Assembly (NCBI GenBank): GCA_044892525.1
Contig: CM097886.1
Coordinates: 76,570,001 to 76,634,000, forward strand
DNA from: Schmidtea polychroa
Taxonomy: Eukaryota
DNA: 64,000 bases
Reading direction: 5' to 3'
The notes under the pieces are model-generated. The model saw nothing but the letters and a program-made list of their open reading frames with translations, had not been told where the DNA came from and did no database searches. Within the stretch, counting starts at the first letter, position 1. Each line of letters starts with the position of its first letter. Of the stretch, positions 40,165 through 64,000 are shown piece after piece. A program made the translations under genes and the position numbers.

Positions 40165-40310
40165 AGTGGTAATAATAATAATAGTAATAGTCATAATAAC
40201 AATAATGATAATAATAATAATGAGAATAATAAGGATAGTAATAAGAACAATAATAGCAATAATAATAGTAATAATGATAATGGCAACAATAATAATAATA
40301 GTGATAATAT
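40165..40310. repeat. (AAT)n-like degenerate microsatellite
   Basis: aataataatagtaat... run. Confidence 0.85.
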
Positions 40311-40559
40311 AACTTTATATTTTACCATTCGTATTTTGGCTTTCACCATTTAGGGATTCATATTTTATGAGTTCGAAGGTTACATTTTGCACTTTACAGG
40401 TTTTCGTCTACGATTTTCAATTTTTTATCTTACAGTTTATAAATTCATACTTTAGAAGTTCTCATCATACACTTTATAATTTATAAATTGTTTATTTAAC
40501 ATTTTACCATTTTATATTTTTTACTTCCTAATTTTCTATTTTCAGATTTATAGTTTCAT

Positions 40560-44727: not shown

Positions 44728-44818
44728 ATCTACAAAAATATACATATCATATTTCCTTTTGTCTTCTTTTTATTCTGAATTTTTCGGTTTTGTAATTTTT
44801 ATTTGGTTTTGGTTTTAT

Positions 44819-46575: not shown

Positions 46576-47754
46576 TTATTGATCGGCGTAGCGGAATCCT
46601 TTGATTCGCTGCGCAATCCTCTGTCTGCACATCGGACATTCCTTTACTTTTCTACTACATGTGGCACATGCGATCAAATGTCCGCATGGCATATGAATAA
46701 CTTCTACACTCCTCTCCCAACACATAGTACATTTGATATCTCGTAAGATAGCTGTTTTGACCATTGATTCTTCTTTTATTTTTGTTTCAGGTTTTTCTCT
46801 ATACTGGGTTATCGCTCTGATCATATCGTACGTTGTTGTTGGTATATGTACATTTTTCTGTAGTTTCTCTCTAATCATGTTCTTTGCCCTTGTCGTGCCT
46901 ATTCCGGCTGCTTTCAACGCTCTGCACATGTTGGGTTTGTCTACCACTTCGTCAACCTCTTCCTCTGTTACTAGTACTTCCGGATATTCGGTTTCTTGTT
47001 CGTTGTGATATAGGCACCATGCTTGATGTCTAATTTCTGGTATGCCTTCTTCCGGTAATCTCTGTTGGCTTTCGCATCTTTCACACTTTAGTATTTGATT
47101 TTCTGTTAGGTAGAACCCTCTTATTGCTAATTCAGGTCCTCTCGTATCATCTCCGAACGTTTTCATTCTATTATCTGCTATTTGCGTGAGGAATTCCCCT
47201 TCACAAGTTGGAACATACTCATCAACGATTCTGGTTATCGCGATGCTCATTTTCCCTCCTTTTTCGTCTTCAGTTTTCAATTTCTCCAAGGCTTCGTATT
47301 TGATTTCCGGTTTGTTGTGTACATCAAATCCCAGTACGAATAGACAAGTTGGGAATCGTCTACGATGTTCCTCCTTTGGGTGTTCTCCTTTTTTCCATTC
47401 TGCTAATTTCCCTTTACAGAAACGACATGTTACTTGATCGGGTATCTCTGGTTTTCCGGAGAAGAAAAATCCGTCGCGTGCTAGCGCTCGGCTCTGTTCC
47501 TTGGTGAAAATGGTCTGATGTTCAAATGACAGATATCTCTGGTTCTCACATCTGAATTGTTCATTATCTCCCAGTTTCAAATTTTCGTGTACCCAATTAT
47601 AATCGTTTCCCATTCTCCGATAATATGCGTAACTACTTGGTTTTGTTTTGCTGACTTCCGCATCCTTCACTCTTTCTCTAGGTGACATATTGTCCTCTTC
47701 CTCTCTCATTGTGATCGTTTTCTTTCGGATATTCGGTCTCTCTTGATTAATCAT
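46576..47754 (-). CDS. Inhibitor of apoptosis protein (BIR + degenerate BIR + UBA-like + RING), intronless
   Basis: LARDGFFF...VTCRFC...W..GEHP.EEHRRRFPTCLFV; C-terminal RING CTMC...PCGHLIACATC....CPMCR. Confidence 0.92.
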   Translation of the reverse strand: MINQERPNIRKKTITMREEEDNMSPRERVKDAEVSKTKPSSYAYYRRMGNDYNWVHENLKLGDNEQFRCENQRYLSFEHQTIFTKEQSRALARDGFFFSGKPEIPDQVTCRFCKGKLAEWKKGEHPKEEHRRRFPTCLFVLGFDVHNKPEIKYEALEKLKTEDEKGGKMSIAITRIVDEYVPTCEGEFLTQIADNRMKTFGDDTRGPELAIRGFYLTENQILKCERCESQQRLPEEGIPEIRHQAWCLYHNEQETEYPEVLVTEEEVDEVVDKPNMCRALKAAGIGTTRAKNMIREKLQKNVHIPTTTYDMIRAITQYREKPETKIKEESMVKTAILRDIKCTMCWERSVEVIHMPCGHLIACATCSRKVKECPMCRQRIAQRIKGFRYADQ

Positions 47755-47894
47755 CTATAATAAATTTCATCATTTCTTTTTACATTTTCTTTTTCTAATT
47801 TTTATGGTTTTGGCAAGTTACTTTACTGTATACAATAACTTTATATTTACTTTACGTCGTTTTTACAAAATATTTACAGTTCCCTCCTATCCGT

Positions 47895-49319
47895 CTATCG
47901 TATTTCTATTGTTGGTCCTTCCTCATCTAGTTCGATTAGGAAGAATATAGTGTCCTTTTCTATGTAGGACCCTTCATTAAATTGGTATAGCTGCATAAAC
48001 TCTGCTACTCCTACCGCAGGATTAACCTCTGTAATCGGTTTATTCCCTGCTGGACTGGATGCTCGAAAACACATTATATGTGTCTTTTTTGCTCCTAAGA
48101 GAGATATTTTTAATCTATGTCGGAATGGCCATGCTATTAGGTCGTCAAAATCTCCTTTACAAATTTGCATATATATGGACATGCACCGATCTTTAAACTT
48201 TCCTTCACCATTTGGAAACCATCTCAATTTCATCTTGTATCCATGTTTCTTGGCGTAGAATGGTTTGCTCACTATCGTTGTCTGGATTCCTTGCTTTGCT
48301 TGCTCCATTATTTCCGTTATTCCTTGGATTTTCCACATGTATGGTAGTATTGGTAGTTCCTCTGTTGTCAGTTCCTTTGTAGTCCATTTGGTTTGTAATT
48401 TAGTTACTTCGACTAATTTGTCGTCTAATTTCAACATCCTTTGTGTTACGGCTTCTCTCGTATTTTCGAAGCTTTCCTGTGAGCTCAGCATTTCTTTTAT
48501 CATGATTTTATGTGATTTGAGTTCGTCTTTGACGTCTTCAATTGCTCTTGCTGTTAACTCTATTGCTCTCATCATCTTTTGCATGTGCTCGAATGTATTC
48601 TCCTCCACATGCTTCTTCATTTCTTCTGCTGGTAATTGTGCTCTACAGTCGAATGTCACCATTGGGCATTTTATTGCTTTTCTCGTGCATATCTCCCAAT
48701 GTTCATTTAATCTGACGTTGTTAATTTCTCCACACTCGTTTGGGCATTTCCCTGTATATTCGTCGCAAATCCGTCTTTCTACTGCGTTTCGATGTTCCAT
48801 TTCGATTTCTCTCCAATTAGCAGTTTCTCCGCAAAATTCGCATTTTTCCGTTCGCGCTTTGCATTCCCCTTTATGTTTGGTTTTCTCTTTTCGTAAAAAC
48901 TTTACCGTGCATGCTTCGCATTCCGATTCTAGATATTCGCATACGTCTGTATGGGCTCTTAACTCCTTTACTCGGCCTGTCCATTCGCATGACCTTTGGG
49001 TGCATCTTATTTTCACTTCTCTGATTTCTCGGTTCATTGCTCTATCCGGTATCGTACCAGTGGGGACCAACTTAAATGCTTCTCCACATCCTGGACAAGT
49101 TTCTCGTTTTAGTCTGGCTAATCTTATATCACACCCTCGGCACAATCTACACCCGCATCGAGTTTGACTTGCTCCAATTAATAATCTTCTACATGCTGTA
49201 TCGGCACATAATAATCTCTCTTCGAACTCGTCCGGCTCGGCTTGGTATTTTCTCATCAACTCATAGTTAATCTTTTGTTCCTCTGCTTCTCTCCGGTTTT
49301 CCTCTGCTTTGTTTTGCAT
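47895..49319 (-). CDS. TRAF-like protein (RING, TRAF zinc fingers, coiled coil, MATH), intronless
   Basis: CGCRLCRGC..TCPGC, DRAMNREI, CEWTG...H..VC, MATH YMWKI..SKPFY..GYKMKLRWFPNG..SIY..ICKGDFDDLIAWPF. Confidence 0.93.
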   Translation of the reverse strand: MQNKAEENRREAEEQKINYELMRKYQAEPDEFEERLLCADTACRRLLIGASQTRCGCRLCRGCDIRLARLKRETCPGCGEAFKLVPTGTIPDRAMNREIREVKIRCTQRSCEWTGRVKELRAHTDVCEYLESECEACTVKFLRKEKTKHKGECKARTEKCEFCGETANWREIEMEHRNAVERRICDEYTGKCPNECGEINNVRLNEHWEICTRKAIKCPMVTFDCRAQLPAEEMKKHVEENTFEHMQKMMRAIELTARAIEDVKDELKSHKIMIKEMLSSQESFENTREAVTQRMLKLDDKLVEVTKLQTKWTTKELTTEELPILPYMWKIQGITEIMEQAKQGIQTTIVSKPFYAKKHGYKMKLRWFPNGEGKFKDRCMSIYMQICKGDFDDLIAWPFRHRLKISLLGAKKTHIMCFRASSPAGNKPITEVNPAVGVAEFMQLYQFNEGSYIEKDTIFFLIELDEEGPTIEIR

Positions 49320-49408
49320 TCTACAATGATGATTTTTAATCTTGGGATTTCTACTTGATTATAACTCTATTTATTTACAGGATTATTTACATTTCACTCC
49401 TTTTTCTC

Positions 49409-49864
49409 CTACACATCTACCGTCGAGTCCGGTTCCCCTGTTCCTGGTAACCCGGTCATCCACTCGACTAAACTGGTAATATCATCATGTTGTCGATTTT
49501 CATGCAACCTTCTAATTTCTTCCGCTTGCCATCTGATTTGGCTTATTAACTGATTGTTATTATACTCTAGTTGCGCGATTATTTGGTGTTGTTCCTCTAT
49601 TTTTGTAATATATATTGCATTTCTATTAATACTCTCTATCAACGCCGTTTGGTTTCGTACCCAGTGCTCTTGAGTCTGATTTGTCAATTGGGTCATTAAT
49701 TCACACTGTACCCTCCACATGGATCCTGTTGGCTGACTCGGCTGGTTTGGCACGTTCATTTCCATCATGTCTACTGGATGTACATTCATAAGCGGCTGTT
49801 CTCTTACTTCAACAACATGTGGTATCCTATTTGGGTGTTCTTGCTCTTCGTTTCTCTGGTTCAT
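49409..49864 (-). CDS. 151-aa small coiled-coil accessory protein
   Basis: Intact ORF, Q/N/E-rich heptads; tattataaatag-ga-ATG. Confidence 0.6.
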   Translation of the reverse strand: MNQRNEEQEHPNRIPHVVEVREQPLMNVHPVDMMEMNVPNQPSQPTGSMWRVQCELMTQLTNQTQEHWVRNQTALIESINRNAIYITKIEEQHQIIAQLEYNNNQLISQIRWQAEEIRRLHENRQHDDITSLVEWMTGLPGTGEPDSTVDV

Positions 49865-50012
49865 TCCTATTTATAATACATGGTCATCATACTTGTTTTT
49901 GATTTTTCTACATATTGTTTTAATTTACTACTTTTATTTTGTACATACTACTACTATTATCACTACTTTTATTATTTCATTTATACATTATTTACAACAA
50001 CTCCTCCTCTCG

Positions 50013-51407
50013 TTATACCAGTGTCGCCATGGGGCCGGAATGCAGCGTGCGCATTCCCCCATATCTTTCGTCCGTTATTCGGTATATATCGACTTCGTGT
50101 GTCCATTCGTTCGGTGTGGGTATTCTTGGTAGTTCCGACATCCACAATCCGCTGGATCCGGGATCCTCTACCACCTCGTATTCTTCTAGATTCAGATTCT
50201 CTGTTGGAATACCGTATTCAAATTTTTCCACTTTGGGCCATTTTCTTTGGTTTCTCGGTTTTTGTTTACATCTTTTGGTGGTTCTTATCCACTGAATCAT
50301 TGCTAACGCTATTATCGTGCTTACTATCGCGCTAGTTATCCATATCATCTTTGTGATGATCGTTGTTCCATTATTTGTTTTTTCTGTCGTTAATATTGTA
50401 CTACCTGTGGTATTTGTTTCTGGTGCTTTGATTTTCTTGAATGCTTGATGTAATCGTTCCTTCTCTTTTTCTGTTAGGTGACTGTGATTTTCCCGTTTCT
50501 CTCCCCCTTCTTGATCTCGGGGTATCCACGGTATGTTTATTAATTGGGGTTTTTGTCGAGTTATTGGTTGACATACGCTGGTTCCTCTTCCTTTCTTAAG
50601 GATACATACTTGGTATCGTTCTTTCCGTTTCCCTGTCTCCATTTTAACGTCTGTACCTTTGTCTATCGGTGTTGTTGTACAGTCGATTATTCCCGTCTTA
50701 TCCATTACACATATCCTTATGATTGGTTCTCCTTCCTGGTTTTTGACTGTAATTACCTCTTCACCTTTCTTGTTGAGGTTAATAGTTATCTGCACTTCCC
50801 GTCTTTCGTCTTTAATTACTTCGTTAATCCATGTTGTTGTTGTTATTAATTCGGTTTGATTTTGCTCTGTTGTTGTTTTTGTACTAACTGATTTGTTTGG
50901 CTTCTTGGTTGTTATCCCCCTCAATGGATCTTGTTTCATTGCCATACTCTTTGGCTTGTCTTTTCTTGGTGCAGTTCTTGTTCCTTTACATACTACTATC
51001 CCTTGTGTTCCTGCGCATACCACAGTAGGGGTATTTGGTTTGACCTCTCCCCAGAAGAATTTGTGGTCTTGTGTCATATCAGTTATTATGCATATGTCTC
51101 TGTCTTCTCTGATGCATACATGTGTAATTGATCGACTCCCTTTATCTTCTATTTCGATACCTTCTTCCAAAATGTTGAGTTGAAAATGTACTCCGGTTTC
51201 GTTGGCTCTTTCTAGCTCCATTTCCTCTGTTGATATGTCTCTACAGATGTCATAATCTCCACATAGCCTGGGATCTCTTTTTTGGCTGCTAAAAATCTTT
51301 CCTTTTGTTATCGATCTGAAATCACAACTTACTCCTGTTCCTTCCATTAGTTGCACACATATTCCGACGGCATTTCCGTCGTAATCCTGACTTTTATCAT
51401 AAATACT
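50013..51407 (-). CDS. Type I membrane glycoprotein-like ORF overlapping the polyprotein end (-1 frame)
   Basis: Frame open from 51407; Cys-paired ectodomain, Thr-rich stalk, TM MIWITSAIVSTIIALAMIQWI, tail with Tyr motifs; no own signal peptide or upstream ATG. Confidence 0.75.
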   Translation of the reverse strand, partial: SIYDKSQDYDGNAVGICVQLMEGTGVSCDFRSITKGKIFSSQKRDPRLCGDYDICRDISTEEMELERANETGVHFQLNILEEGIEIEDKGSRSITHVCIREDRDICIITDMTQDHKFFWGEVKPNTPTVVCAGTQGIVVCKGTRTAPRKDKPKSMAMKQDPLRGITTKKPNKSVSTKTTTEQNQTELITTTTWINEVIKDERREVQITINLNKKGEEVITVKNQEGEPIIRICVMDKTGIIDCTTTPIDKGTDVKMETGKRKERYQVCILKKGRGTSVCQPITRQKPQLINIPWIPRDQEGGEKRENHSHLTEKEKERLHQAFKKIKAPETNTTGSTILTTEKTNNGTTIITKMIWITSAIVSTIIALAMIQWIRTTKRCKQKPRNQRKWPKVEKFEYGIPTENLNLEEYEVVEDPGSSGLWMSELPRIPTPNEWTHEVDIYRITDERYGGMRTLHSGPMATLV

Positions 51408-54400
51408 TCACCTTCTTGGGAAGCTTCTCTTACGATTCCCATATTTTTTGTTTCTGTTAAACAGATGGATGTTAATATTATAAATATTCTTTGTAGTAGG
51501 ATTGGCTGGATTTGATTTCGACACACTATGCTATGTAGTGGGGACTTTCGTTTTTTGTTCTCCGTTTTGTCGAATCCTTGATCTTCACCTCGACATTGGT
51601 CTTCTTCGTCTTCTTCCAATTCCTCATCATCACTCGTTGTTTCTCCGCCTTCCGGATTCTGTTCTCTGTCGTTTTCCTCTGGGTTGTTATCGTTATCCCC
51701 CATCCTTTCGTCGTCGTCGTCGTCGTCATTCCTCTCACCCGGGGTTTTCCTGAAAATGTCGTCCTCGACATTTGCTGCTTTGATCATCTCCTCGTATTTT
51801 TTAATTATCTCTTTTTTGTCGTTGTGGATACTTTCTCGTTCTTCTTTGGTTCCTTGATATTTCCGTTGTTTCCGGTGCCATTCCCACACTAGTATTTCTA
51901 GTTGCTTTTTCATCGCATGTGTTTTTGTGCATTCCCACCAATTACCTGTCAATTCTGTTCTATTTCTCTGTAATATTGCTTTAATGGTTTTTGGCATTGG
52001 TGGTCTTGAGTATATGGCGCTTCTTAGTACGATATTTTCGTTGTTTTGGAATTGATTTATATCAATTACTTCCGCTCTTAATTCGTTTTGTTTCCATTTG
52101 ATTAATATTGCTGCGGTTCTGTCTAAGTTTCCTCTGATGGCTTCCAGAATTGGTTCAATGCTCTGTCCCAACACCTCGGCTTCTTCGGTTGTTGCATTTC
52201 CTGTGATAAAGTTCACTATACTAGGTCTTTTTGACCTGACGGCATAACGTAATACGGTTCGTTGTTTGTTATCTTTTTCTTTCAGCGTGGATCCCGTTCT
52301 TAATAATTCTCTGAGTACATCTCTTGACGCGCCTATTGCTATGGCTTTCATCAGTGGAGTTTTTCCTTTACTGTTTTTGACGTTTGTTGATTGTTTGCAG
52401 TTTTCCATTATTCGTATAATCTCTAAAGCTCGTTTTTCTTGTCCTGCTTTCACTGCATGATGGATTGGCCAGTTATTACTCAAATCACTTGTTAGGAACA
52501 TGATTGGTAATCTCCGGATTAGTTCATATATTTGAGTCGGTATTTGTAATCCTTCGGCATATCTTCGTCCTTTCGCATATCTTTCTGCTACTAACATTAG
52601 TTTGCCCAATACTTGGTATTTATTGGTTATATCGGCCCATTCTGGTACAATTTCTCGTGCTATTTTTATTGTCATATTCCATGTTGCTTGGCTCCTTGCC
52701 ATTGCGTCAGCTTCGCTTTCTGCTTCAGTTCCTTTATGGGCGCTGCTGCTTGTTTCTCCTCTCAACATGAATATTCGTCTTGTCTGTGATCTAGTTAATC
52801 TACCGCTTACTTCTGGTTCCGTTGTGGCATTTGTTTGTGATCTCGTGATTATCCTTCTTGTTTCTGGGTCTTTAGTGGCAGTTTTCGCTACTGCTTTGCA
52901 TCGACATGTATTCACATAAATGGGTCTAATTAGTGGATTGTTAACCAACTTCACTCTAGCGTTGTTCTCGTTTACATAGATGATTTCATATGGCCCTCTG
53001 CCATTACGTTGTAATTTCTTTGCTGTTCCTGGGATTAATTCGGGTGTTTCTATAATAACCCAATCTCCGATTTTAAATTGATGGTTTTGCACGTTCTTCT
53101 TTTTATCATGTAATTCCTTATAACTCTCTTGGTTGAATCGGATGTTCATCCCTGCGGTTTTCCATATTTCTTGCATTCTCTCCTTGAACTTTGTCACATA
53201 ATCATCTATCTCCATATATTGTGAGATTGGCGGTTGGTATTCGAGATCCATCGGCATGTTGCATTCCCTTCCATACATGAGTTTAAACGGACTCATTTTC
53301 GTTGCTGAGTGTATTGACATTCGATAAGCCATTAGACACAACTTAATATATTCATCCCAGTCCTTTTGATGTTTACTCACGTAATTGGACATCATGTCTA
53401 TTAGTATGCCGTTAAATCTTTCTGTCTGACCATTCGTTTGCGGGTGGTATGGTGAGGTTCTCAATTTGGCAATTCTAAAATAATTTGTCACTTCATTTAT
53501 TATCTCGCTCATGAAATTAGTTCCTTGGTCAGTTAAGATTTGTTTTGGTGTTCCATATCTGCAGCAGATCTCTTCCACTAATATCCTTGCAACCGTTCGT
53601 GCTTTCTGGTCTGGCATCGCAAATGCTTCAGGGAACTTAGTCAGATAATCAGTTATTACCAATATATACACATTTCCACTGTTAGTCTCTGGTAGTGGTC
53701 CAACTACATCCATTGCAATCATTGTCATCGGTTCTGGCGGTATCGGCATTGGTTTCAATGGTGGCTTTAGTTTACTGCCCGTTGTTTTTCTGGTTGCGCA
53801 TATCAGGCAGTTCTTTATCCATTCTTTCACGTCATCGCTCATATTTGGCCAGTAATATTTCTGTTTGAGCCTTGCTTCTGTTTTCTTGGCTGACATATGT
53901 CCGCCCAATTTACCATCGTGGTATTGAATCATAATTTCTTTCCGTCTACTTTCTGGTAGACACATCAATCGTTTGTCGCCATCCATTACCAATAGCCATC
54001 CTTTCTCGATCGTATATCTGTGACGATTTTTCTCCATGTGTTCTTTTAGTCGATCATCGTTGTTGAATATTTTCATATCGTTTTTTTCCAGGAACTCAAT
54101 TATTAGTTTTAATTCATTGTCTTCCTTTTGTTCGTTCTTTAGATTGGTAAAATCGATATCTTCCGCGATTATCAGGCATATTCGTCTGACGTCATGATCC
54201 ATGAGTTCTTCAAATACAAATCTCGACATGCAGTCTGCATTTGCGTTTGCTTTTCCTGACTTGAATTTGATGTATGGGGAATATTCTTGTAACTGCATTG
54301 CCCATCTCATCAATCGACTAGATGCCTCTTTATGTTGGCCCAACCAAACTAGAGGTTGATGGTCCGTAGTAATAATTATCTCGTGTCCCCATAATAAATA

Positions 54401-57400
54401 TTTGAAATGTTTTATCGCCTGAATTATTGCTAAGGCTTCTCTTTCTGTGACCGAGTAATTCTTCTCGTGTTTTTTGAACGTCTTGCTATAATATCCGATG
54501 ACTCTTTCTCTTTTCTCCTCATCCCATTGTCCTAGCACAGCTCCTGATGCGTATCCACTTGCATCAGTTGCTAATAAAAAAGGCTTTTTGAAATCTGGGT
54601 GGATTAAGATAGGCGAGGCTATTAGTTTATCTCTGAGCGATTCGAAAGCTATTTGCTGTTCCCTTTCCCACAGAAATGGAGTATCTTTTTTTGTTAGTTC
54701 TTGAATTGGTTTTGCGATAGTTGCATAATTTTTGATAAACTTGCGGTAGTATCCGCATAATCCCAGAAATTCTTGTACCTGAGTCACGGTTTTTGGTATC
54801 GGACAATTCTTTATTTTCTCAACGTTTCTCGGATCTGGTTCTTTTCCTTTTGCCGACACAATGTGTCCTAAAAATGTGACTCTCTCCTTTGCCCAGTCGC
54901 ATTTTGACGGTTTCAATTTCAGCTTCCATTGTTTCAGTCTTATGAATACGTTTCTGATGTCGATTAAGTGTTGCTCGAAAGTACCTGAATAAATTAACAG
55001 ATCATCGATATACACCATACATTGTTTGATCCCGTGTGTCACAAAGTTCATACATCTCTGAAACGAAGCAGGTGCGTTTGTTAATCCAAATGGCATCTTT
55101 TTAAACTGATATAAATCTTTTCCGATGGTAAAGGCTGTCTTTTCTCTATCTTCCTCTTTAACTTTAATTTGCCAGTATCCACTCTTTAGATCTAAAGATG
55201 TAAAGTATGCTGCTCCATGTAACATCTGTAACATTTCGTTAATATCTGGCAGTGGGTATGTATCCCTTTTTGTTACTGCATTCAACCTCCGATAATCGAT
55301 ACAAAATCTCTGTGTGCCATCTTTCTTTTTGACCATTACTACTGGAAATTGCCAGGGTGAACAGCTAGGTTCGATCACTCCGGCATCTAACATCTTTTGT
55401 ACCTCCTCCTCTGCTACCGTTTTCTGTGCTTCGGCTAATCGATATGGTCTCAAAGTTATGGGTGTCTCATCCGTTAATGGTATAATGTGTTGCGTTACAT
55501 CGCTGGTACCCAAATCCAAATCTGAAGCCGCAAAAATATCTTTAAACTCAATCAGTAGCTGTCTGAGTTGTTCCTTTTCGTCTTCATTTAGGAGTTCGCT
55601 ATCGATGGTCCATAATTCTTTTTCGTCTGCTCCCTCGCTTTTGATCTCCGGCAGCTCAATGTTCATCATTGGTGTGAGTTTTCCAAGTCTCTCGTTTTCG
55701 TAGATTACTTTATCTTCCTCATCAAAATTGGTGATGTTGATGGGTATCTCGTTATCCTCATTTATACTGACAATTTCTCTTGCCAATGGCAGCTCCCTTC
55801 TCTTCTCGAATTTTTGACTTGGTTCAAATATCATATCTCCTTTGGCTTCGTTATCGACCTTGACATAACATATTGTCTGGGTACGTGCTGGTATTATCAT
55901 TTTTTCGGAGCATCTCACTTCTGTTCTCATTGTGCATATCTGTCCAGTTTTATCTTTTAATTTCATGGAACTTAAATCAATCACAATTTCTTTCAATAAT
56001 TCCGGCATTACATCTGTTCCAATTATACATGATACGCTTAGCTGTCTAATGACTGCGAGGTACGTTGTAACTTTAACCCCTTTGTATTCGATCGTTGACC
56101 ATACTCTTCCTACTACCGCTATGGATTGTTTGCTGCATGTTATTACATCCATGGTTGTCTCCTCAATGCATGGCCATAGTCTTCCTGGTAGCATATTCAT
56201 ATTTATTGCTGAGATATTTGCTCCGGTATCAATCATTGCATCCATCTCTATTCCGTTTACTTCGACCGTGATAGTTAACGATGGTCCTGCTGGTGTCTGC
56301 AATACCGCAATCGTTCGTGTCTCCACCTCTTGCCCCACATTTTTAACTGGCTTGATCATTGTTGGGTCCATTGCTGCCCAATTTGGTTCATACGCCGTTG
56401 GGTAAATATTTGGTACGGGTAATCTCCCGGTTCCCATTCTTATCCGTTCTCTCATTGTCCCTGGTCGTCGCATTGGCCCATTGGTTGGTGCCTGTAAATA
56501 TGGTGATCCCCATGGTTTCCTTTTTTCGTTTTCCCAAGTGTCTGTATTTTTGTTTATCAACATTACTCCTCCTTGATTATTATCGTCATCGTCGAAATCA
56601 TCATTGTCATCACTATCATCGTCTCGTCTGAGATTCATCCACTTTTTCCACTTCCCGGTTCTTTTCGCTTTCTCTTGAGTTCTTTCCGCTTCCAATCTCA
56701 TTATCACTTTGAACTTACGTCCGACTTCTTCATCTGTCCCTTTCATTTGCGTTAATATTTTCAACAATCTTTTTATTCGATGAATATCCTTTGAGTGTCC
56801 ATGCAACACCATTGTTTTCGCTAGGAACGGTAAGAATCCAATTGCAAGTTTCCAATTTACTTTTCTCTCGCGCTTATAGATGTCAAAACATGCTAGCATC
56901 TGAGTTAGTATCACTCTAACTATTTGTATTATCAGAATTATTCCGAGTATCCCTGCCATCATTTGGCCAAATACCAAAAATCTACCCCACATAGCCTTCA
57001 TCATGTTTGCTGTTGCTTGTTGGTAGTGACTTGGTGATAATAATAGCTCGTAGTTCGGGCTCTCCCCATAATTATTTCCTCCAGAAATAGTCACTATATT
57101 TGATAAGATTGCTTGTCTTTGCGCTGGGAATAACAGGTGGGCTCTTGCTGATTCGAGATCTTTTGGTGTATATAATCCACTCTGGGATACGTCTATCGGC
57201 TTGAACTCTAGTTCTGTTGTTAGTTCCGTCAATCCAAATTTCTTGGGCGTTACTACGATTGTTTTACTTGGGAATTGAACCCATTGTCCATCTTCTTTTT
57301 CATACATTGGTCCATATGCATTACTACAATTAAACAGATTTGGTTGAAACCCTACCGGGTTCATTACCCTAGTGACTGCTTGCACAAACCTGGGTTTACC

Positions 57401-60400
57401 TTCGTGGATAATTTCGAGTTCGTTTGCACACTTATCTCTTGGTATTGTAGGGTTTTCTGGCAATCTTGCCATTATCTTTTTGCATTGGTAGGTGTACATC
57501 ACTTCGCCCACGATTCGTCCGAAATATCCTTCCTGTAATGGTAGTAACGGAATTGCGTTATCTGGATTTGTAATCGCCATTGCTAATTTGGTTCTCAGTA
57601 TTTCTTTGTTGAGCAGGCAATCGTTTCTTAACAGATCATGGTAGACTTTTTCCGTGGATGTTAATCCTCTGTGATATAAGAAATCCATCTTATTATTAGC
57701 GTATAAATATAGTTTGACATCCTTTTCGCTTAGTCTTCCGACTGCATTTGCTAGGGTTCTCCGCGACAAGTAGATCCCTTTATAATTGGTGCTGATCACC
57801 ATCTCATCGCATTTACTCACCATTTTGTTCTTTATGAACCTCATTCCTATTCCATCGTCTTTGGAGATTATCGCTGTGGGTGTTACTTCCGATTCCAATT
57901 TCGATGTTATTACGTCTTCTCTGAATCCTTTCCTTGCTCTCAACTCTTCCATCGCTCGTTTTTCTGCTTCTCCTTTTGGTTCACTGTATACTTTCCCTTG
58001 GATTTCTTCGAATATTGCTGTTTTGAGCAACATTAGTCGACATACCTTCTGATCCGCATGGTATACCAGAGTTGACATTCCGGTTGAACATGATCGATCT
58101 GATGCGAGACAACTTGGGTATTTCTTCATTGCTTGCGTGTCAGGGTCGAAATAACCTTGATACCTTTCTAATTTAGCTTCGTAGCTTTCTATCACGACCA
58201 CTCCACTAACCAGTTGTCCGTTCAAGGTGTACGTTCCTGTCTCACATGTTCCGTCTCCTTTAGTGATTCTGCCTGCCGTATACACACGAGTCGTTTTTAT
58301 TTTTCCTGGTTCTGCAGCAATTTCAATCCCTTGCCTTAAGTGGATTCTCCCCGATCGGAATCCTTCCTCGCATTCCTCTCTTGATAGTAATATTACTGTC
58401 GATTCCAATCCCGGTTCTATGATTGTTGAGTGAGAGGATGAACCGCAGTGATGTGCAAATATCTTTCTGGTTACCGTACATTCTTGGACCATAGTTTTGA
58501 TGAAATCTGCTTCTTGATATACGTTGTACGAGACTGATGCCATGACTGTTTGTAATTTTCTTGGGTTTGCCGCTTTACAGTCTTCCGTATCCTTTAATGA
58601 ATATTTCTCATGGATTTTTATGTTGTCGCAGTCGTATACTGCAAATGACTCCGTTCCTTTGATACACATCATCCATATCAATATCGTGGTTATTATGGCA
58701 TTCATTCCCTTTCGACTTGCTCTTGGGTCGTTTATATTGATTGTTCCTTCGAATTCAGTTAGCAAATCGCGTAACTTTGCTTGCATCATTTCCGTTTGAT
58801 CTTTCTTCCCAGTTGATTCGATGAAGCTTCTCCATCCCCCTTGTTCAAGTATATATGGTTCTATTGATCGTTTAATTATTTCTGTTACTGTGAATTCGTA
58901 ACCCGTTGCGTTATATTTTGGCATTCGTTTTTTATATTGGCCGATAACGTTATATACTAAATATGCTAATCCCACTAAAAATCGATTTTGGTCCTCTGAT
59001 CTGCTTAATAGATGTTCCACAATTAATCTGAGTTCCACGGGATCTTTTAACGTTAATCGAATTTTATTATCCATGATTTTCATTATTATCGGTTTCAATA
59101 CTGCCCATAATTGTTTGGCTTCGGTCGGAATATTATCCTTCCTCATGACTCTTTTCACTTCTGGATTTGCTAATGCTAACATGTTGGCTAATAGGTCATT
59201 TATCCATCGTGTCCCTTGTTCTCGGACGCTTGTCTTCACTTTCACTTGTTTTACTAATGCACTTAGTTTATCCATTTTAGTTTTTACCTGCTCCATTTGC
59301 GCCTGAACTTTGGATTTTGGTTCGATCTCTGCTTTATCTGTTTTTGGTCTTCCTCTTGTTCGTCGATCCATAGCTGTTCCGGTTTCTTTCCGTTTTGGCG
59401 GATTGTAAGTTGTATCTTTTGACGTGGTCGCTCCTGGATCTACTCTCCAGTTGCTCCATTCATCGGTTGTGGTTACATCTTTATTGGCATCTCTTTCCAC
59501 GTTATCTAAATCCGTCTCGGCTTCCGTCGTTTCCACTGGTTGTCTCTGCGCGCATACAAATCCATCTAAATCATCAGTTGTCAGTTCACCTTCGTCGATA
59601 AATAGATCTCCTGATTGCGATGCTCTCATAATCTCGCCTGCTTCTACTATCTCTTGTAATTCATCCAGTATTTCGTCTTCTCCCGTTGTTTCGATCGTCA
59701 CTTCACTAACCGCATTTGGAACTTCTGGTGTGTCCAAACTTCCTGGTTGTTGGGTGGATGATTTTTGCTTTATCTCTCTTCTCCTTAGCTCTCTACCTGC
59801 AATTTTACTCACCGTTAATCTGTTCACAATTTCTCCTTGGAGTGGTGTCACACCGATCTCAATATCGTCGTCTAATGATCGTCCCTCGTGTTGTAAGTGG
59901 AATGGGAGTTCATAAGGTATTCTCTTTTTAACTTCTCTGACTTTAGCTGTCGTATAGAATTCCTTTTCCATTGGTTCAAAATCTGGCATGAATATTTTTA
60001 ATTGATATTTCTCAGGTGAGTTTTCGGCCCACTCTTGTTGTTTCCATTTCCGGATGATTTCACCAAATTGTTCAGGGTACCATACGTATACCCGTCGATA
60101 TTCTTCAATCGCTTTAACGATCTTTCGTAGATTTTGAATCCTTTTGCATGATTCGGCTATCCATTTTGCTAGTTCTACCACCGCTCGTCGACGATTTTTC
60201 GCCCCGTTTTGTAATATCTCCATCAACTCCTTACATTTTTGTGCTTCCAACAATGTTGCTGCTTCTTCCTCATCTGCGTCGGCGTCTATTGGTAGATGTC
60301 CTGAATCAGACACTCTTCTCCTCATCATACAGATTCTCGGTTGATTTTCTGGTATGTTCAGTCGTTGGTTCATTTCTTGTTCTGTTTCAACTTCTACTCT

Positions 60401-63400
60401 GATCTGGATAGCATTGTTTTTCACAAATTTTGACTGCTCATTCTCAATGTAACTTAGACGTATTAATTTAGGTGTCCCAGAAGCGATATTTTCTGATGTT
60501 GTTGGTCGTTGATAGCAGGCGCTCCTTGGATCTGGTTTCAATGTTTCTTTATGCATGTTAAGGCTATCTTTCAATGGTTCGATTGCTATCGTCACTTTTC
60601 TGCTAAACGGCCATGGTACCTTGTCGTCATAATTTCCTTTGCAGATGACGAAGAATGCCGACACATAATTTCCTTTACCTATCCCGTCTCCGTTCGGGTA
60701 TATTCGCAATTTCATCTTGTACTCACCTAATCCTGAGTAGAACGGTGGACTTACTAATCGTGTGATTTTCTCTTCCTTTGCTGATTTTATCTTTTCCATC
60801 CAATTCTCAATTTTCCACGTGAATGGTGCTAACCTTACTGGTTCTCGTATCTCCTCATCTTCTCCTGATGGTAATTCATTTTGGAATTCTTGTGGTAATA
60901 TATCCTGGTAAGTATCGATCGGTTTCTCTCTTACCCATACTGCTGCGATCTCTTCGGGTATATTATCTATCCAATTTGGTTCCAACTTTTGCTGCTCCCA
61001 ATCCCATCGAGCTTCACTTTCGATCCACACTTTTTTCCATGGTATCAGTTTGCAATCTTCGTCATTGAAGGCTGCTAGTTTTAGTTTATCATCCTTTAGC
61101 CAATGGTTATAAATATCTATTATTCGATCCATCTTTGCCCTCATTCCCCATTGGAATCTTTTAATTTGTTGCTCGGTTTTCGTGGCGTTTTTGTGCCCAC
61201 CAGATGGTTCATCCATCGCGATTATATTGATGACGGCTCCATCTTCCCAGATTCCTAGTTCGTAAATTACAGTTCGGTCTCCTCTTTCTAGCATGTGCCG
61301 GTTGTACATTATTATCACATCTTCGATCATTCCATCCTCACTATTTTCTCGAGCTTTTTGGATGATCTCTTGATCTATGATTTGCACTAACTCGTCAACT
61401 TGGCAATCGGGATTAACTTCTATTATTTGTTTCTCTTCATTTGGCAACTTCACCTTTATTTTTATCGTTTCATGCTCGCATTTGGTTCTCTCGTATTCTC
61501 CGTATTTAGATATCAATTCTGTCGCTCGTTTGTCTTCGAATCTCATAATTTCCGTGTCTCGTACGTCTTTAACAAATTGTTTCATTAGTTGTGGCCATCT
61601 TTCTCTCAATCTATTAATGTATTTCCTTGTCTGATCGATAGCTTGTTTGACTAAAATTATTTGGTTTTCTTTCATTATTTTTCGTTCGATCTTTTCCAAT
61701 TCTGGTTCTACTTCATTGTTAAACACTTGTTGGATTTTCTTGAACATCTCTGCTACCGAGTCGTCATCCCTGGTTTTCTCTAAGGTTAAGATGTTAGTTT
61801 CGTTTGGCCATATCATCGCATCTACCAAATGTATGCCTATTTTAACTTTGTAACCATCGACATATAATTGTTTATTTTTATGGCTCGTTCCCATTTTTTC
61901 CTGTACCCAGTTGTACAGTTCATCGGTATTTGTTCCTTTTAATTCGATAGTCTGTATCTGAATCTCGGGGTGTTGAATGCTTACTTGATATTGATCTGGG
62001 CCTGCTTCCTTTAGTTTCTCTTTATATTTTGTTGCTAAATCTTTCCATGCTGCCGTTATTATACCTCCTTCACACTGGTATACTTGAGTTATAAATTTTA
62101 AGCATTTTCTGTATGTTAACTCGTTGATGTAGCTCTCATTTCGCTCTATTTCTGTTACTGTGTCGAGAATTTCCTCGAATATCTCTTCTTCATCTTTTTC
62201 TATCATTGATTTCATGTCATCATTTTCACTCTCCTCACTACTTTGAGGTGTTTCACTGTTTGGAGGTGTTTTTGGTTCGTTATTTTCCTCACTTGACTGA
62301 AATAATTCGCCTCCCAGGCTACTCACCTCACTTTTCTCATCTTCCTGATCCGTCTGATCGCTCCGCATTTGTCTCAGCATGTTTATTTTAGCTTTGGTAT
62401 GTGGTTCCTTCTTTTCAAACCACTCATTTTTCCTGAACCAATGCTCTTTCACTTTTTCTTTTATTTGTTCCTCAGTTAATGTAGGATTTTCGTTTTTGAT
62501 TCTGTCCTCGATTTTTTGTAGTAGTACCCTCTGAATTCGATTTTTTGTAACTATCTCATTGCTTTTTGGTTCGTCTTTACTCTCATCTCTCTTTTGTCTC
62601 CTTTCTTTCTCCTCTTTGGTAAATTCTTTAATCAATTGTATTTTCTCTTCACTGCTCAATTCTGTTCGTGGATCGATCTCATTTTCTTTTGTCGTTTTTA
62701 TCTCCTTGTTTATTATCGGTTCACTCCCGTCGTTGTTAACACACTGCTCCGCAGTGTGCGATTCCTCTTTATTTGTTAATCTCATCATATTTATTCTTCC
62801 GGGATTCGCTTCCCGTTGTTTCCATCTTTCTTGAATTTCTCTGGCTTCCTCGTTTTGTAATCTTTGCCATTCGACTCGTTGCTGATCTTGTTGTTGCTTA
62901 CTTGGTTGGTTCCGGATTTCCTCGGTGCTCTGCATCATGTTGATTCGTTGTTGTTGGTTATTAGTCGGTATTCGCAGGATCATATCTTTTAATTGTTCGA
63001 TTTCCTGCATGAGGTTGATTTGTGTGTTCTGAACTGGATTGTTTGATCCTGGTTGATTTGGTTTGGTTCTCATCGTGCATTCTCTTGCCATGTGTCCAGG
63101 CTGATTACAATTGTAGCAGGTTCTGGTTCCTCCTCTGCTCATAGACATCATGGGTCCTCTGCAGACATTTTCCGTGTGGCCTCTTCTCCCACACTTTTGA
63201 CACATCCTTGCTTTATAACATTCATTGCTCCAATGCCCTGGTCGTTGGCATATGTTGCACGTTCGATTGTTGATGTCGTTGTTCCTGAAATTATTAGTAA
63301 AATTTTGAATATTACCTCCATTGTTTTGGTTTCTTGTTTGTGGAGTTTTGAACAACTGTTGCGATCCTGGGATGAATTGATTCATTACTGGATTTGCATT

Positions 63401-64000
63401 ATTGACTTGGTTGTTTGTGGTTGTTGCTGTTGCCGCTGGAGCTGCTGGAGCTGCTGTCATTGCTGCTACTTGTATTGGTGTTAAGTAGGTTTCACATTTG
63501 TTAGCGATTTTTAGTGCTTCTTCCAGCGTCTCTGGTGCTCGGCATCCCAAAGTTGCTCGTATATCCTCCCGTTTCATGCCATCTACGAATACGGCTATTA
63601 TTTTGTCTTCCGGAACTGGTTGATTTGAATCGAAGGCTTCTCGTGCTAGTCGTCTCAATTCGCATGCGTACAGTGCGTTGGATTCGTTATATTTCTGCTT
63701 TCGATGCAGAAAGTCTAACATTTTTCGATTTCCCTCTTTTTCGGTACCGAATGTTTTTATTAAAAATTCCTTGATCTCTTTCCACGTTCTCAACTTAGTT
63801 GCATCACATTTCGCCTCCAAGTATACATCTTGGGCGCTTCCCTTTAGATATAGGGGTATTCGTTCTCGTACGACTATGTCTGGCCAGTGACATATCGTAA
63901 TGTATACTTCGAATTCCTTTATAAACGTTTCCAGCTGGTTTATATTTCCATCGAATGGCTCTCCTCGAAATTTCTCTCTGAATTCTCCAATGTTGACGTG
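51347..64000 (-). CDS. Giant Gag-Env-Pol polyprotein (>4217 aa, 5' end beyond the window)
   Basis: The 4157-aa ORF stays open for 60 more codons to the window end (HVNIGEFREKFRGEPFDGNINQLETFIKEFE...IPLYLKGSAQDVY, capsid-like). Confidence 0.97.
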   Translation of the reverse strand, partial: HVNIGEFREKFRGEPFDGNINQLETFIKEFEVYITICHWPDIVVRERIPLYLKGSAQDVYLEAKCDATKLRTWKEIKEFLIKTFGTEKEGNRKMLDFLHRKQKYNESNALYACELRRLAREAFDSNQPVPEDKIIAVFVDGMKREDIRATLGCRAPETLEEALKIANKCETYLTPIQVAAMTAAPAAPAATATTTNNQVNNANPVMNQFIPGSQQLFKTPQTRNQNNGGNIQNFTNNFRNNDINNRTCNICQRPGHWSNECYKARMCQKCGRRGHTENVCRGPMMSMSRGGTRTCYNCNQPGHMARECTMRTKPNQPGSNNPVQNTQINLMQEIEQLKDMILRIPTNNQQQRINMMQSTEEIRNQPSKQQQDQQRVEWQRLQNEEAREIQERWKQREANPGRINMMRLTNKEESHTAEQCVNNDGSEPIINKEIKTTKENEIDPRTELSSEEKIQLIKEFTKEEKERRQKRDESKDEPKSNEIVTKNRIQRVLLQKIEDRIKNENPTLTEEQIKEKVKEHWFRKNEWFEKKEPHTKAKINMLRQMRSDQTDQEDEKSEVSSLGGELFQSSEENNEPKTPPNSETPQSSEESENDDMKSMIEKDEEEIFEEILDTVTEIERNESYINELTYRKCLKFITQVYQCEGGIITAAWKDLATKYKEKLKEAGPDQYQVSIQHPEIQIQTIELKGTNTDELYNWVQEKMGTSHKNKQLYVDGYKVKIGIHLVDAMIWPNETNILTLEKTRDDDSVAEMFKKIQQVFNNEVEPELEKIERKIMKENQIILVKQAIDQTRKYINRLRERWPQLMKQFVKDVRDTEIMRFEDKRATELISKYGEYERTKCEHETIKIKVKLPNEEKQIIEVNPDCQVDELVQIIDQEIIQKARENSEDGMIEDVIIMYNRHMLERGDRTVIYELGIWEDGAVINIIAMDEPSGGHKNATKTEQQIKRFQWGMRAKMDRIIDIYNHWLKDDKLKLAAFNDEDCKLIPWKKVWIESEARWDWEQQKLEPNWIDNIPEEIAAVWVREKPIDTYQDILPQEFQNELPSGEDEEIREPVRLAPFTWKIENWMEKIKSAKEEKITRLVSPPFYSGLGEYKMKLRIYPNGDGIGKGNYVSAFFVICKGNYDDKVPWPFSRKVTIAIEPLKDSLNMHKETLKPDPRSACYQRPTTSENIASGTPKLIRLSYIENEQSKFVKNNAIQIRVEVETEQEMNQRLNIPENQPRICMMRRRVSDSGHLPIDADADEEEAATLLEAQKCKELMEILQNGAKNRRRAVVELAKWIAESCKRIQNLRKIVKAIEEYRRVYVWYPEQFGEIIRKWKQQEWAENSPEKYQLKIFMPDFEPMEKEFYTTAKVREVKKRIPYELPFHLQHEGRSLDDDIEIGVTPLQGEIVNRLTVSKIAGRELRRREIKQKSSTQQPGSLDTPEVPNAVSEVTIETTGEDEILDELQEIVEAGEIMRASQSGDLFIDEGELTTDDLDGFVCAQRQPVETTEAETDLDNVERDANKDVTTTDEWSNWRVDPGATTSKDTTYNPPKRKETGTAMDRRTRGRPKTDKAEIEPKSKVQAQMEQVKTKMDKLSALVKQVKVKTSVREQGTRWINDLLANMLALANPEVKRVMRKDNIPTEAKQLWAVLKPIIMKIMDNKIRLTLKDPVELRLIVEHLLSRSEDQNRFLVGLAYLVYNVIGQYKKRMPKYNATGYEFTVTEIIKRSIEPYILEQGGWRSFIESTGKKDQTEMMQAKLRDLLTEFEGTININDPRASRKGMNAIITTILIWMMCIKGTESFAVYDCDNIKIHEKYSLKDTEDCKAANPRKLQTVMASVSYNVYQEADFIKTMVQECTVTRKIFAHHCGSSSHSTIIEPGLESTVILLSREECEEGFRSGRIHLRQGIEIAAEPGKIKTTRVYTAGRITKGDGTCETGTYTLNGQLVSGVVVIESYEAKLERYQGYFDPDTQAMKKYPSCLASDRSCSTGMSTLVYHADQKVCRLMLLKTAIFEEIQGKVYSEPKGEAEKRAMEELRARKGFREDVITSKLESEVTPTAIISKDDGIGMRFIKNKMVSKCDEMVISTNYKGIYLSRRTLANAVGRLSEKDVKLYLYANNKMDFLYHRGLTSTEKVYHDLLRNDCLLNKEILRTKLAMAITNPDNAIPLLPLQEGYFGRIVGEVMYTYQCKKIMARLPENPTIPRDKCANELEIIHEGKPRFVQAVTRVMNPVGFQPNLFNCSNAYGPMYEKEDGQWVQFPSKTIVVTPKKFGLTELTTELEFKPIDVSQSGLYTPKDLESARAHLLFPAQRQAILSNIVTISGGNNYGESPNYELLLSPSHYQQATANMMKAMWGRFLVFGQMMAGILGIILIIQIVRVILTQMLACFDIYKRERKVNWKLAIGFLPFLAKTMVLHGHSKDIHRIKRLLKILTQMKGTDEEVGRKFKVIMRLEAERTQEKAKRTGKWKKWMNLRRDDDSDDNDDFDDDDNNQGGVMLINKNTDTWENEKRKPWGSPYLQAPTNGPMRRPGTMRERIRMGTGRLPVPNIYPTAYEPNWAAMDPTMIKPVKNVGQEVETRTIAVLQTPAGPSLTITVEVNGIEMDAMIDTGANISAINMNMLPGRLWPCIEETTMDVITCSKQSIAVVGRVWSTIEYKGVKVTTYLAVIRQLSVSCIIGTDVMPELLKEIVIDLSSMKLKDKTGQICTMRTEVRCSEKMIIPARTQTICYVKVDNEAKGDMIFEPSQKFEKRRELPLAREIVSINEDNEIPINITNFDEEDKVIYENERLGKLTPMMNIELPEIKSEGADEKELWTIDSELLNEDEKEQLRQLLIEFKDIFAASDLDLGTSDVTQHIIPLTDETPITLRPYRLAEAQKTVAEEEVQKMLDAGVIEPSCSPWQFPVVMVKKKDGTQRFCIDYRRLNAVTKRDTYPLPDINEMLQMLHGAAYFTSLDLKSGYWQIKVKEEDREKTAFTIGKDLYQFKKMPFGLTNAPASFQRCMNFVTHGIKQCMVYIDDLLIYSGTFEQHLIDIRNVFIRLKQWKLKLKPSKCDWAKERVTFLGHIVSAKGKEPDPRNVEKIKNCPIPKTVTQVQEFLGLCGYYRKFIKNYATIAKPIQELTKKDTPFLWEREQQIAFESLRDKLIASPILIHPDFKKPFLLATDASGYASGAVLGQWDEEKRERVIGYYSKTFKKHEKNYSVTEREALAIIQAIKHFKYLLWGHEIIITTDHQPLVWLGQHKEASSRLMRWAMQLQEYSPYIKFKSGKANANADCMSRFVFEELMDHDVRRICLIIAEDIDFTNLKNEQKEDNELKLIIEFLEKNDMKIFNNDDRLKEHMEKNRHRYTIEKGWLLVMDGDKRLMCLPESRRKEIMIQYHDGKLGGHMSAKKTEARLKQKYYWPNMSDDVKEWIKNCLICATRKTTGSKLKPPLKPMPIPPEPMTMIAMDVVGPLPETNSGNVYILVITDYLTKFPEAFAMPDQKARTVARILVEEICCRYGTPKQILTDQGTNFMSEIINEVTNYFRIAKLRTSPYHPQTNGQTERFNGILIDMMSNYVSKHQKDWDEYIKLCLMAYRMSIHSATKMSPFKLMYGRECNMPMDLEYQPPISQYMEIDDYVTKFKERMQEIWKTAGMNIRFNQESYKELHDKKKNVQNHQFKIGDWVIIETPELIPGTAKKLQRNGRGPYEIIYVNENNARVKLVNNPLIRPIYVNTCRCKAVAKTATKDPETRRIITRSQTNATTEPEVSGRLTRSQTRRIFMLRGETSSSAHKGTEAESEADAMARSQATWNMTIKIAREIVPEWADITNKYQVLGKLMLVAERYAKGRRYAEGLQIPTQIYELIRRLPIMFLTSDLSNNWPIHHAVKAGQEKRALEIIRIMENCKQSTNVKNSKGKTPLMKAIAIGASRDVLRELLRTGSTLKEKDNKQRTVLRYAVRSKRPSIVNFITGNATTEEAEVLGQSIEPILEAIRGNLDRTAAILIKWKQNELRAEVIDINQFQNNENIVLRSAIYSRPPMPKTIKAILQRNRTELTGNWWECTKTHAMKKQLEILVWEWHRKQRKYQGTKEERESIHNDKKEIIKKYEEMIKAANVEDDIFRKTPGERNDDDDDDERMGDNDNNPEENDREQNPEGGETTSDDEELEEDEEDQCRGEDQGFDKTENKKRKSPLHSIVCRNQIQPILLQRIFIILTSICLTETKNMGIVREASQEGEVFMIKVRITTEMPSEYVCN
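52090..52480 (-). other. Ankyrin repeats (polyprotein domain after integrase)
   Basis: WPIHHAVKAG, NSKGKTPLMKAI, KDNKQRTVLRYAV, EPILEAI. Confidence 0.85.
52900..53930 (-). other. pol: Integrase domain
   Basis: HHCC (H.GKLGGH...CLIC), IAMDVVGPLP, LTDQGTNF, YHPQTNGQTERFN. Confidence 0.97.
54220..55480 (-). other. pol: Reverse transcriptase and RNase H domains
   Basis: RFCIDYRRLN, LDLKSGYWQ, MPFGLTNAPASFQR, YIDD (55001-55012); RNase H TDASG, EREALAI, TDHQPL, NANADCMSR. Confidence 0.98.
55950..56300 (-). other. pol: Aspartic protease domain
   Basis: AMIDTGANIS (Asp at 56228-56230), CIIGTDVM. Confidence 0.95.
56780..58705 (-). other. env: Envelope glycoprotein, chuvirus/Monjiviricetes class III fusion-like, in frame between Gag and PR
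   Basis: Signal MNAIITTILIWMMCIKGTES, then FAVYDC..YSL.D..C, HCGSSSH, C.LNKEIL..KLAMA..NPD, GEVMYTYQC, TRVM..C..GPMY..W, SGLY..DL..LLFP; TM at ~56890-56990. Confidence 0.85.
58814..59225 (-). other. Bcl-2-like domain in the polyprotein
   Basis: BH2-like IEPYILEQGGWRSFIES (58814-58864), BH1-like HLLSRSEDQNRFLVGLAYL, upstream amphipathic helices. Confidence 0.65.
59795..60007 (-). other. Ubiquitin-like domain 3
   Basis: YQLKIF...KVREVKKRI..FHLQHEGRSLDDD. Confidence 0.5.
60385..60826 (-). other. TRAF-type MATH domain in the polyprotein
   Basis: FTWKIENW, SPPFYS..GEYKMKLRIYPNGDG..GNYVSAFFVICKGNYDDKVPWPF. Confidence 0.93.
61220..61468 (-). other. Ubiquitin-like domain 2
   Basis: IKIKVKLPNEEKQIIEVNPDCQVDELVQ...IMYNRHMLE..RTVIYELGIWEDGAVINII. 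Confidence 0.65.
61781..61990 (-). other. Ubiquitin-like domain 1
   Basis: QEKMGTSHKNKQLYVDGYKVKIGIHLVDAMIWPNETNILTL parallels ubiquitin [39 protein letters not shown]. Confidence 0.55.
63075..64000 (-). other. gag: Gag capsid and three CX2CX4HX4C zinc knuckles
   Basis: LHRKQKYNES...Y...LRRLA capsid motif; CNICQRPGHWSNEC, CQKCGRRGHTENVC, CYNCNQPGHMAREC. Confidence 0.95.

Follow-up and report, generated by a model that had tools for sequence, protein, structure and literature searches.

A Burro-type giant retroelement of Schmidtea polychroa with a conserved cargo of ubiquitin-like, Bcl-2-fold, TRAF, IAP and ankyrin domains

Burro elements and the element in the window

The closest described systems are Burro1/GYPSM1 and Burro2-4 of Schmidtea mediterranea (Jurka 2007; Grohme 2018), giant retroelements bounded by long terminal repeats (LTRs) and cited here through the Burro section of a 2019 review (PMC6431247). 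That section describes an env gene in frame between gag and pol, together with MATH_TRAF_C, BIR, ankyrin (ANK), BCL2-like, Ubi2/SUMO-like and dUTPase-like domains, and takes the domains tied to apoptosis and ubiquitination as a hint that Burro meddles with host systems, for which experiments are awaited. Here we describe an element in a 64,000-nucleotide stretch of the Schmidtea polychroa genome (assembly GCA_044892525.1, contig CM097886.1, forward-strand positions 76,570,001 to 76,634,000; hereafter the window). By its match to the published description it is almost certainly a Burro-type, env-bearing Ty3/gypsy element. It shares with Burro1-4 a length above 30 kb between LTRs, an interior of about 25 kb, a Gag with three CCHC knuckles, the in-frame env, the order protease, reverse transcriptase, RNase H and integrase (PR-RT-RH-IN), MATH, ubiquitin-like, BCL2-like, BIR and ankyrin cargo, a coiled-coil open reading frame (ORF) and a high copy number.

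An earlier note on this DNA had put forward 46576..60826 as its best candidate for an undescribed system. Since the Burro section of PMC6431247 lists these domains and states the hypothesis, this does not stand: system and hypothesis are already known, in print since 2007-2019, and are not a discovery. What is added to that section is that the cargo is under purifying selection, that the Bcl-2 call holds structurally, that the ancient modules (ubiquitin-like domains, Bcl-2 and Env) can be separated from add-ons, and that a non-canonical Bcl-2 groove sharpens the functional question. Selection, the loss of the BH1 signature, the presence of three ubiquitin-like domains (UBLs) and a cleavage-like motif were found here and do not appear in the review's Burro section. 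A literature search, with most subscription journals outside its reach, found no title or abstract opening that deals with selection acting on the Burro cargo, with small Bcl-2-env families or with Bcl-2 in Polintons; details counted here as added may stand in the figures or supplements of Grohme 2018 or Jurka 2007.

From 42.9 kb to the window end the minus strand is A-rich coding sequence, with seven ORFs besides one frame of 4,217 codons or more. In total the element measures 35.0 kb, with a 25.4-kb internal region, TG...CA ends and a 4-bp target duplication. Its two LTRs differ by one mismatch and one 3-nt gap over 4782 columns (99.9% identical), and the insertion is therefore recent. A primer-site-like stretch is present, which we take to be of the tRNA-Pro kind. 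The long ORF (ORF1; 51347-64000+, minus strand, starting just past the window) encodes a polyprotein in the order gag-cargo-env-PR-RT-RH-IN in a single frame, in which Pfam recognises CCHC knuckles, MATH, a fusion glycoprotein (PF24664, E 1e-67), protease, reverse transcriptase, RNase H, integrase and ankyrin repeats. The frame runs 4,791 codons from stop to stop in 6 of 13 listed rows of the ORF1 MATH search versus 4,340 in this copy, so that ORF1 here ends early, near 51.35-51.41 kb; the published Burro ORF1, with 4,873 aa in the review section, is likened to it by description. A search with the IAP protein returned 3,374 first-look candidates for further copies, and the 105 scored were all 99-100% identical and stop-free. 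Contigs from four sequencing runs, guessed to be RNA, span the stretch and are given no weight on expression either way. As the earlier note had it, six module types lie on one strand (minus) of one retroelement, and Pfam, profiles and structure search agree on this. The main features, all on the minus strand, are as follows.

67957-72735 in window-extended numbering (minus strand): 5' LTR, past the window end, the second copy of 37772-42553
63074..64000 (minus strand): Gag, with a capsid-like region and three CCHC knuckles, the ORF start lying just outside the window
61205..62005 (minus strand): ubiquitin-like domains 2 and 1, at 61205-61480 and 61760-62005, outside 46576..60826
60389..60823 (minus strand): MATH domain within ORF1 (E 4.7e-29)
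59804..60277 (minus strand): helical hairpin domain and ubiquitin-like domain 3, from profile and predicted model
59342..59365 (minus strand): basic RGRP motif in an acidic linker, kept in 5 of 7 aligned rows covering the linker
58805..59230 (minus strand): Bcl-2-fold domain with BH2 kept and the BH1 Trp-Gly replaced, from profile and structure search
56873..58705 (minus strand): internal predicted signal sequence (about 58646-58705), Env (PF24664) with a transmembrane segment at its C-terminus, the whole lying in frame between gag and pol
53441..56272 (minus strand): protease, reverse transcriptase, RNase H and integrase in Ty3/gypsy order, by Pfam
52202..52465 (minus strand): ankyrin repeats, about three by Pfam (E 6e-8), downstream of integrase in ORF1
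47895..49319 (minus strand): full-length TRAF with RING, zinc fingers, linker and MATH (zf-TRAF and MATH E 8e-27)
46576..47754 (minus strand): IAP ORF with BIR at 47335-47526 (E 9.5e-16) and C-terminal RING at 46609-46737 (E 3.2e-12)
37772..42553 (minus strand): 3' LTR, about 4.78 kb, TG...CA, its second copy found in the next 20 kb

The RGRP motif presumably resembles an AT-hook.

Folds, selection and layering of the cargo

Taken alone, the Bcl-2 region of the window has no Pfam match and only a BH2-sized match to Bcl-xL (E 0.44), and the single UBLs are weak or missed in Pfam; further tests were therefore needed. A genome search with PF00452 gave 909 matches, of which 150 were scored, with Bcl-2-like matches lying within frames of about 3,050 codons. 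A profile of four sequences (the window domain and those of three smaller families described below) matched PDB Bcl-2 at E 2.5e-5. Against 1.84 billion representative sequences the same profile found 12 proteins, six with an env match, six with Pfam Bcl-2, one with a Gag knuckle and ubiquitin, and one canonical Bcl-2; none of the ten looked up carries a name. An AlphaFold model from a 15-row alignment that held no canonical Bcl-2 row reached a confidence (pLDDT) mostly of 70-84, with loops down to about 59; a single-sequence model (mean pLDDT 43) was discarded. Searched with Foldseek, the model matched the Bcl-2 family in 39 of 39 listed rows, the best being the poxviral FPV039 (E 3.3e-3, probability 1.0), and none reaching 0.001. 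In VIA the top 23 rows were all of the Bcl-2 family (Z 13.6, root mean square deviation 2.7 over 139 residues), with Z 11.9-12.9 to A179L, KsBcl-2, BHRF1 and CNP058 and no more than 9.5 for unrelated rows. On this predicted model the Bcl-2 helical fold of 58805-59230 is confirmed. Like the viral Bcl-2 proteins FPV039, A179L, BHRF1, KsBcl-2 and F1L, the domain has this fold over about 130-140 residues and a hydrophobic segment after it; unlike them it is embedded in a Gag-Env-Pol polyprotein, with the predicted signal sequence of Env as its anchor. In all 11 sequences that cover both regions, BH2 is followed within 48-82 residues by a signal-like hydrophobic stretch and the start of Env.

Two other kinds of Bcl-2-like gene were seen in the genome. 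Seven near-identical host-type copies with an intact NWGR and a BH3-like motif lie at C4:89.9-90.8 Mb. A second dispersed, multi-copy kind adjoins Polinton/Maverick-like genes (A32 ATPase, rve integrase and an endonuclease-VII-bearing ORF) in three loci read widely; it keeps the BH1 tryptophan in 6/6 and lies nearer to host Bcl-2 than the retroelement domains do in a weak FastTree phylogeny. In one type BH2 is preceded by an in-frame stop, which may be a short intron.

Three UBLs lie in the window, of which only UBL3 (59804-60010) falls within 46576..60826. A seven-sequence profile (three window rows, of which UBL1 is the weakest, and four sister-family rows) matched ISG15 and ubiquitin at E 8e-8, and the predicted model of UBL3 has beta-beta-alpha-beta topology, so that neither the Bcl-2 nor the UBL calls of the earlier note were rejected by profile and structure. 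No conserved C-terminal diglycine was found, GG following window UBL2 only and being absent in the sister family. Read by eye, a unit of helices plus UBL occurs three times in ORF1. The idea of a death fold in the helical domain before each UBL gained no support, its matches being generic helical ones (Z of at most 9.5, one domain filling the list).

The other modules are recognisable by sequence. The IAP belongs to its family by a BIR with intact CCHC zinc ligands (C-x2-C-x16-H-x6-C) and a C-terminal RING, which it shares with cellular and baculoviral IAPs; unlike these it has a single clear BIR beside a degenerate BIR-like segment (recognised by eye), is borne by a retroelement and is absent from the sister giant family. 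The TRAF has RING, zinc fingers and C-terminal MATH, its N-terminal half matching TRAF6 chains. Its RING carries cysteine at the usual histidine ligand, as do 8 of 8 host-type TRAF frames that include a RING (19 fetched), and it shares the RING-zinc finger-MATH arrangement with planarian TRAFs, although it is only 26-29% identical to full-length host-type ones. Because of this shared ligand, and because the ORF1 MATH is 47% identical to one host-type TRAF, the sequences point to capture of the TRAF and ORF1 MATH from the host lineage; a MATH tree left their placement among host-type TRAFs without resolution. The planarian TRAF family is reported as expanded in passages of PMC6109357 and PMC7586133. 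Burro as the sole cause of that expansion was rejected, the best 50 of 150 MATH rows falling outside this family and the one row whose surroundings were read not lying in a Burro-like element. Burro copies do add TRAF, MATH, BIR and Bcl-2-like sequences, which can lead to overcounts of planarian gene families or confound RNA interference (RNAi) targets. Searches of a 5.8-billion protein set gave no match even for the TRAF and are thus uninformative on absence.

All cargo domains are under purifying selection. The ratio of non-synonymous to synonymous change (omega) was estimated pairwise between 19 copies and the window, from variants seen in at least two copies, with kappa 7 and transition correction; the copies are related, and variants are counted against one reference. 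These copies, drawn from the BIR and IAP match lists, are 92-99% identical to the window and cover Bcl-2, MATH and UBL3 in 15 cases, UBL1 and UBL2 in 13, ANK in 16, TRAF in 18 and IAP, by construction, in all 19. Omega is 0.07 for Bcl-2 (5 non-synonymous and 30 synonymous changes), 0.13, 0.06 and 0.04 for UBL1-3, 0.32 for MATH, 0.13 for ANK, 0.18 for TRAF and 0.24 for IAP (all p <=0.008), with 0.04 for Env and 0.00-0.02 for the enzymes (RT, RH and PR 0.00) as references. Third codon positions hold 55-100% of shared changes. The cargo is thus conserved across copies (omega 0.04-0.32), the dN/dS check that the earlier note had proposed, and it is very probably functional for the element. A conserved 97-codon block between PR and RT, where a dUTPase-like domain is expected in Burro, has omega 0.00, and the 70-aa part of it that was scanned has no Pfam match.

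Related families show how the cargo is distributed. A second giant family (C2:35.889-35.920 Mb; 30.1 kb, identical 3.9-kb LTRs) has an RT 91% identical to that of the window, with synonymous sites near saturation. It keeps the three UBLs (42-49%), Bcl-2 (34%), ANK (29%, duplicated), TRAF (29%) and, at 28% identity, a counterpart of the 160-aa RING ORF that lies upstream of gag after the 5' LTR; Env is 57% identical and the Bcl-2 domain only 34%. Three smaller env-bearing LTR families lie at C1:113.81 Mb, C4:73.22 Mb and C2:120.41 Mb. One measures 13.6 kb, one 14.5 kb and one 23.7 kb, the length of 23.7 kb including a non-LTR-type RT frame, and they are 48-52% identical to the window in RT and 34-36% in Env. 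Their order is Gag-UBL-Bcl-2-Env-PR-RT-RH-IN, with a Bcl-2-like domain directly before env in each (Pfam E 0.022 and 6e-5; 29 bits), and two of them then carry a long ORF (777 and 1,046 codons) that belongs to no known family. Among the families examined, the two giant ones alone carry TRAF and ankyrin, and just one of these has IAP. The simplest reading of these sequences is that an old UBL-Bcl-2-Env core was later joined by TRAF, ANK, IAP and MATH.

Possible roles of the cargo

We read the locus as a recent Burro-type copy whose real, selected cargo probably damps stress and death signalling in the particle-making cell, for the element's sake. The LTRs, the target duplication, the order of the domains, their folds, the selection on them and their layered distribution were observed; from these we infer the following steps. 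ORF1 would be threaded through the endoplasmic reticulum membrane, the signal before Env leaving the Gag-to-Bcl-2 part in the cytosol and the Env transmembrane segment returning PR-RT-IN-ANK to it. Because the signal run follows BH2, established membrane topology would make the Bcl-2 domain cytosolic and tail-anchored. The element protease may then cut at a recurring motif, releasing UBL-UBL-MATH, UBL-Bcl-2-anchor and ANK modules. A five-residue cleavage-like motif, picked after viewing the sequence, is present eight times in ORF1, against a mean of 0.21 and a maximum of 3 among 2000 shuffles. Its sites include one that follows the knuckles, one that precedes the UBL block, one directly behind MATH and those on the PR/pol, RH/IN and IN/ANK borders; at the five sites covered, the copies show it unchanged or with conservative changes, suggesting candidate protease sites. 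As ubiquitin ligases or decoys, the TRAF, IAP and small RING would bear on the host TRAF-TAK1-JNK/p38 and caspase axis more than on NF-kB, and the Bcl-2 domain would most likely work through a non-canonical surface. In passages of the TAK1/MKK/p38 study PMC4993586, traf2-1 and xiap homologs are reported to modulate the tissue degeneration that infection drives. Such cell-autonomous damping by RING ligases or decoys together with a non-canonical Bcl-2 is favoured here because the BH1 signature is altered and the ankyrin matches are generic, and we think it rather likely; for the cargo as a whole, an anti-death or anti-immune direction is somewhat the better bet.

Several observations weigh against this reading. 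Purifying selection is silent on the direction of the effect, and unnamed linkers are constrained equally (omega 0.07-0.24). The presence of the IAP in 19/19 copies and its omega are biased, because the copies were picked through BIR and IAP matches. BH1 in the window reads D-Q-N-R, not NWGR, and among 15 element domains (three rows of the set being left out) glycine occurs in one and tryptophan in none. The second giant family has no BIR/IAP ORF and no in-frame MATH, and in the three smaller families, with their long open frames, tblastn (E 1e-3) found no TRAF, IAP, MATH or ANK; this search is not very sensitive, since it also missed their Bcl-2 domains, and Pfam covered part of the frames. 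The cleavage-like motif, a post hoc choice, has only three sites in the second giant family and none in the family designated famA.

An alternative that we consider possible, if doubtful, is that the Bcl-2 fold is a particle-assembly part, a matrix-like tether that holds Gag near Env through the Env signal until protease maturation, only the TRAF/IAP/ANK layer meeting host signalling. In every element family seen, from 14 to 35 kb, the domain keeps its place immediately ahead of the Env signal, the BH1 Trp-Gly is lost throughout, its omega is close to that of Env, and the first methionine of Gag lacks an N-terminal Met-Gly. Yet BH2 is kept, 12 of the 15 rows have a basic residue at the BH1 arginine position, and the 34% identity of Bcl-2 between the giant families, against 57% for Env, fits host-facing evolution. 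Passages of PMC2836074 also tell against a tether, as F1L binds Bak despite highly divergent BH domains, although F1L keeps the BH1 glycine that the window domain lacks; the same source reports that mutation of this glycine abolishes the pro-survival activity of Bcl-2 and of KSHV Bcl-2.

About as doubtful is a clade-wide history, in which an env-bearing Ty3/gypsy-like clade, with Burro as its swollen extreme, fixed a captured Bcl-2 before Env, with the Env signal as tail anchor. The BH3-groove glycine would then have been lost, leaving a matrix-like tether or a non-canonical death regulator, TRAF, IAP and ankyrin would have come later, and Polinton-like elements would have taken Bcl-2 independently. 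If true, this would point to Bcl-2-gated cell death as a defence against mobile elements in flatworms.

Less probable still is the form in which the earlier note cast the idea, namely a coordinated kit like that of large DNA viruses (vBcl-2, vIAP and IkB mimic), blocking mitochondrial apoptosis, caspases and NF-kB and biasing cell survival in a regenerating host. Every domain type is present and constrained, and Foldseek ranks a poxviral Bcl-2 first. The modules of this toolkit are real and selected; its coherence is weak, the parts being layered and unevenly spread among families. A block of mitochondrial apoptosis sits poorly with the BH1 glycine missing from 14 of the 15 element domains. 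An IkB mimic has a precedent in the planarian nidovirus PSCNV, whose ANK, in passages of PMC6211748, is proposed as one and is closest to host proteins with Rel homology and ankyrin domains. By description, each is a set of about three repeats within the giant polyprotein of a parasite of planarians, but the Burro repeats match generic ankyrins and DARPins, with no IkB or NF-kB chain among the best 60 PDB rows of 78 matches in one search and of 397 in the other. Passages of PMC13563047 report seven highly divergent planarian Rel-domain genes (Smed) and no clear NF-kB homolog; our genome search for Rel homology domains found no match, which, given those seven genes, is not evidence of absence. 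As to regeneration, passages of PMC8532177 describe Burro1 as repressed in neoblasts by three PIWIs, seen there only after triple knockdown, and Burro1 RNAi as bringing no improvement of the smedwi-2 phenotype; silencing in stem cells argues against a benefit to host regeneration.

That the cargo is passively captured, functionless host sequence hitch-hiking in a young, fast-spreading family, as the 99-100% identity of 105/105 scored IAP matches and an A run after one accessory ORF might suggest, is very improbable, being largely refuted by the marked shortage of amino-acid changes that shared variants show in each cargo domain, with open frames and order also kept between families at near-saturated synonymous distance.

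Accessory reading frames and other sequences

The remaining ORFs of the element, again on the minus strand, are listed below.

50013..51407 (minus strand): predicted type I membrane protein of no known family, the ORF1 tail in other copies, its frame broken near 51.35-51.41 kb here (omega 0.20)
49409..49864 (minus strand): small accessory ORF of no family, with a counterpart at 29% identity in the second giant family
44895..46493 (minus strand): accessory ORF, likely coiled-coil, followed by a 43-nt A run
43960..44745 (minus strand): accessory ORF, likely coiled-coil, with a counterpart 25% identical in the second giant family
42909..43883 (minus strand): accessory ORF of 324 aa with predicted signal sequence and one transmembrane segment, no family (omega 0.39)

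The counterpart of the membrane protein at 50013-51407 is the ORF1 tail in the second giant family too, and it is possible that this protein and that at 42909-43883, both of them under purifying selection, are receptor-binding or decoy proteins. Neither the membrane protein nor the Bcl-2 region drew a usable lead from the ESM Atlas. The coiled-coil ORF at 44895-46493 is probably the published 'Smc' motif. Both copies of the LTR carry two small ORFs without a Pfam family (window 38170-38649 and 38850-39263), one likely coiled-coil and one with a terminal RGRP motif.

Outside the element, the window holds a Mutator-like DNA transposon with FLYWCH and MULE domains at 30902-33866, whose 14-bp subterminal repeats form inverted ends, and fragments of piggyBac-like (DDE_Tnp_1_7) and hAT transposases at 22587-24684 and 6104-6517.

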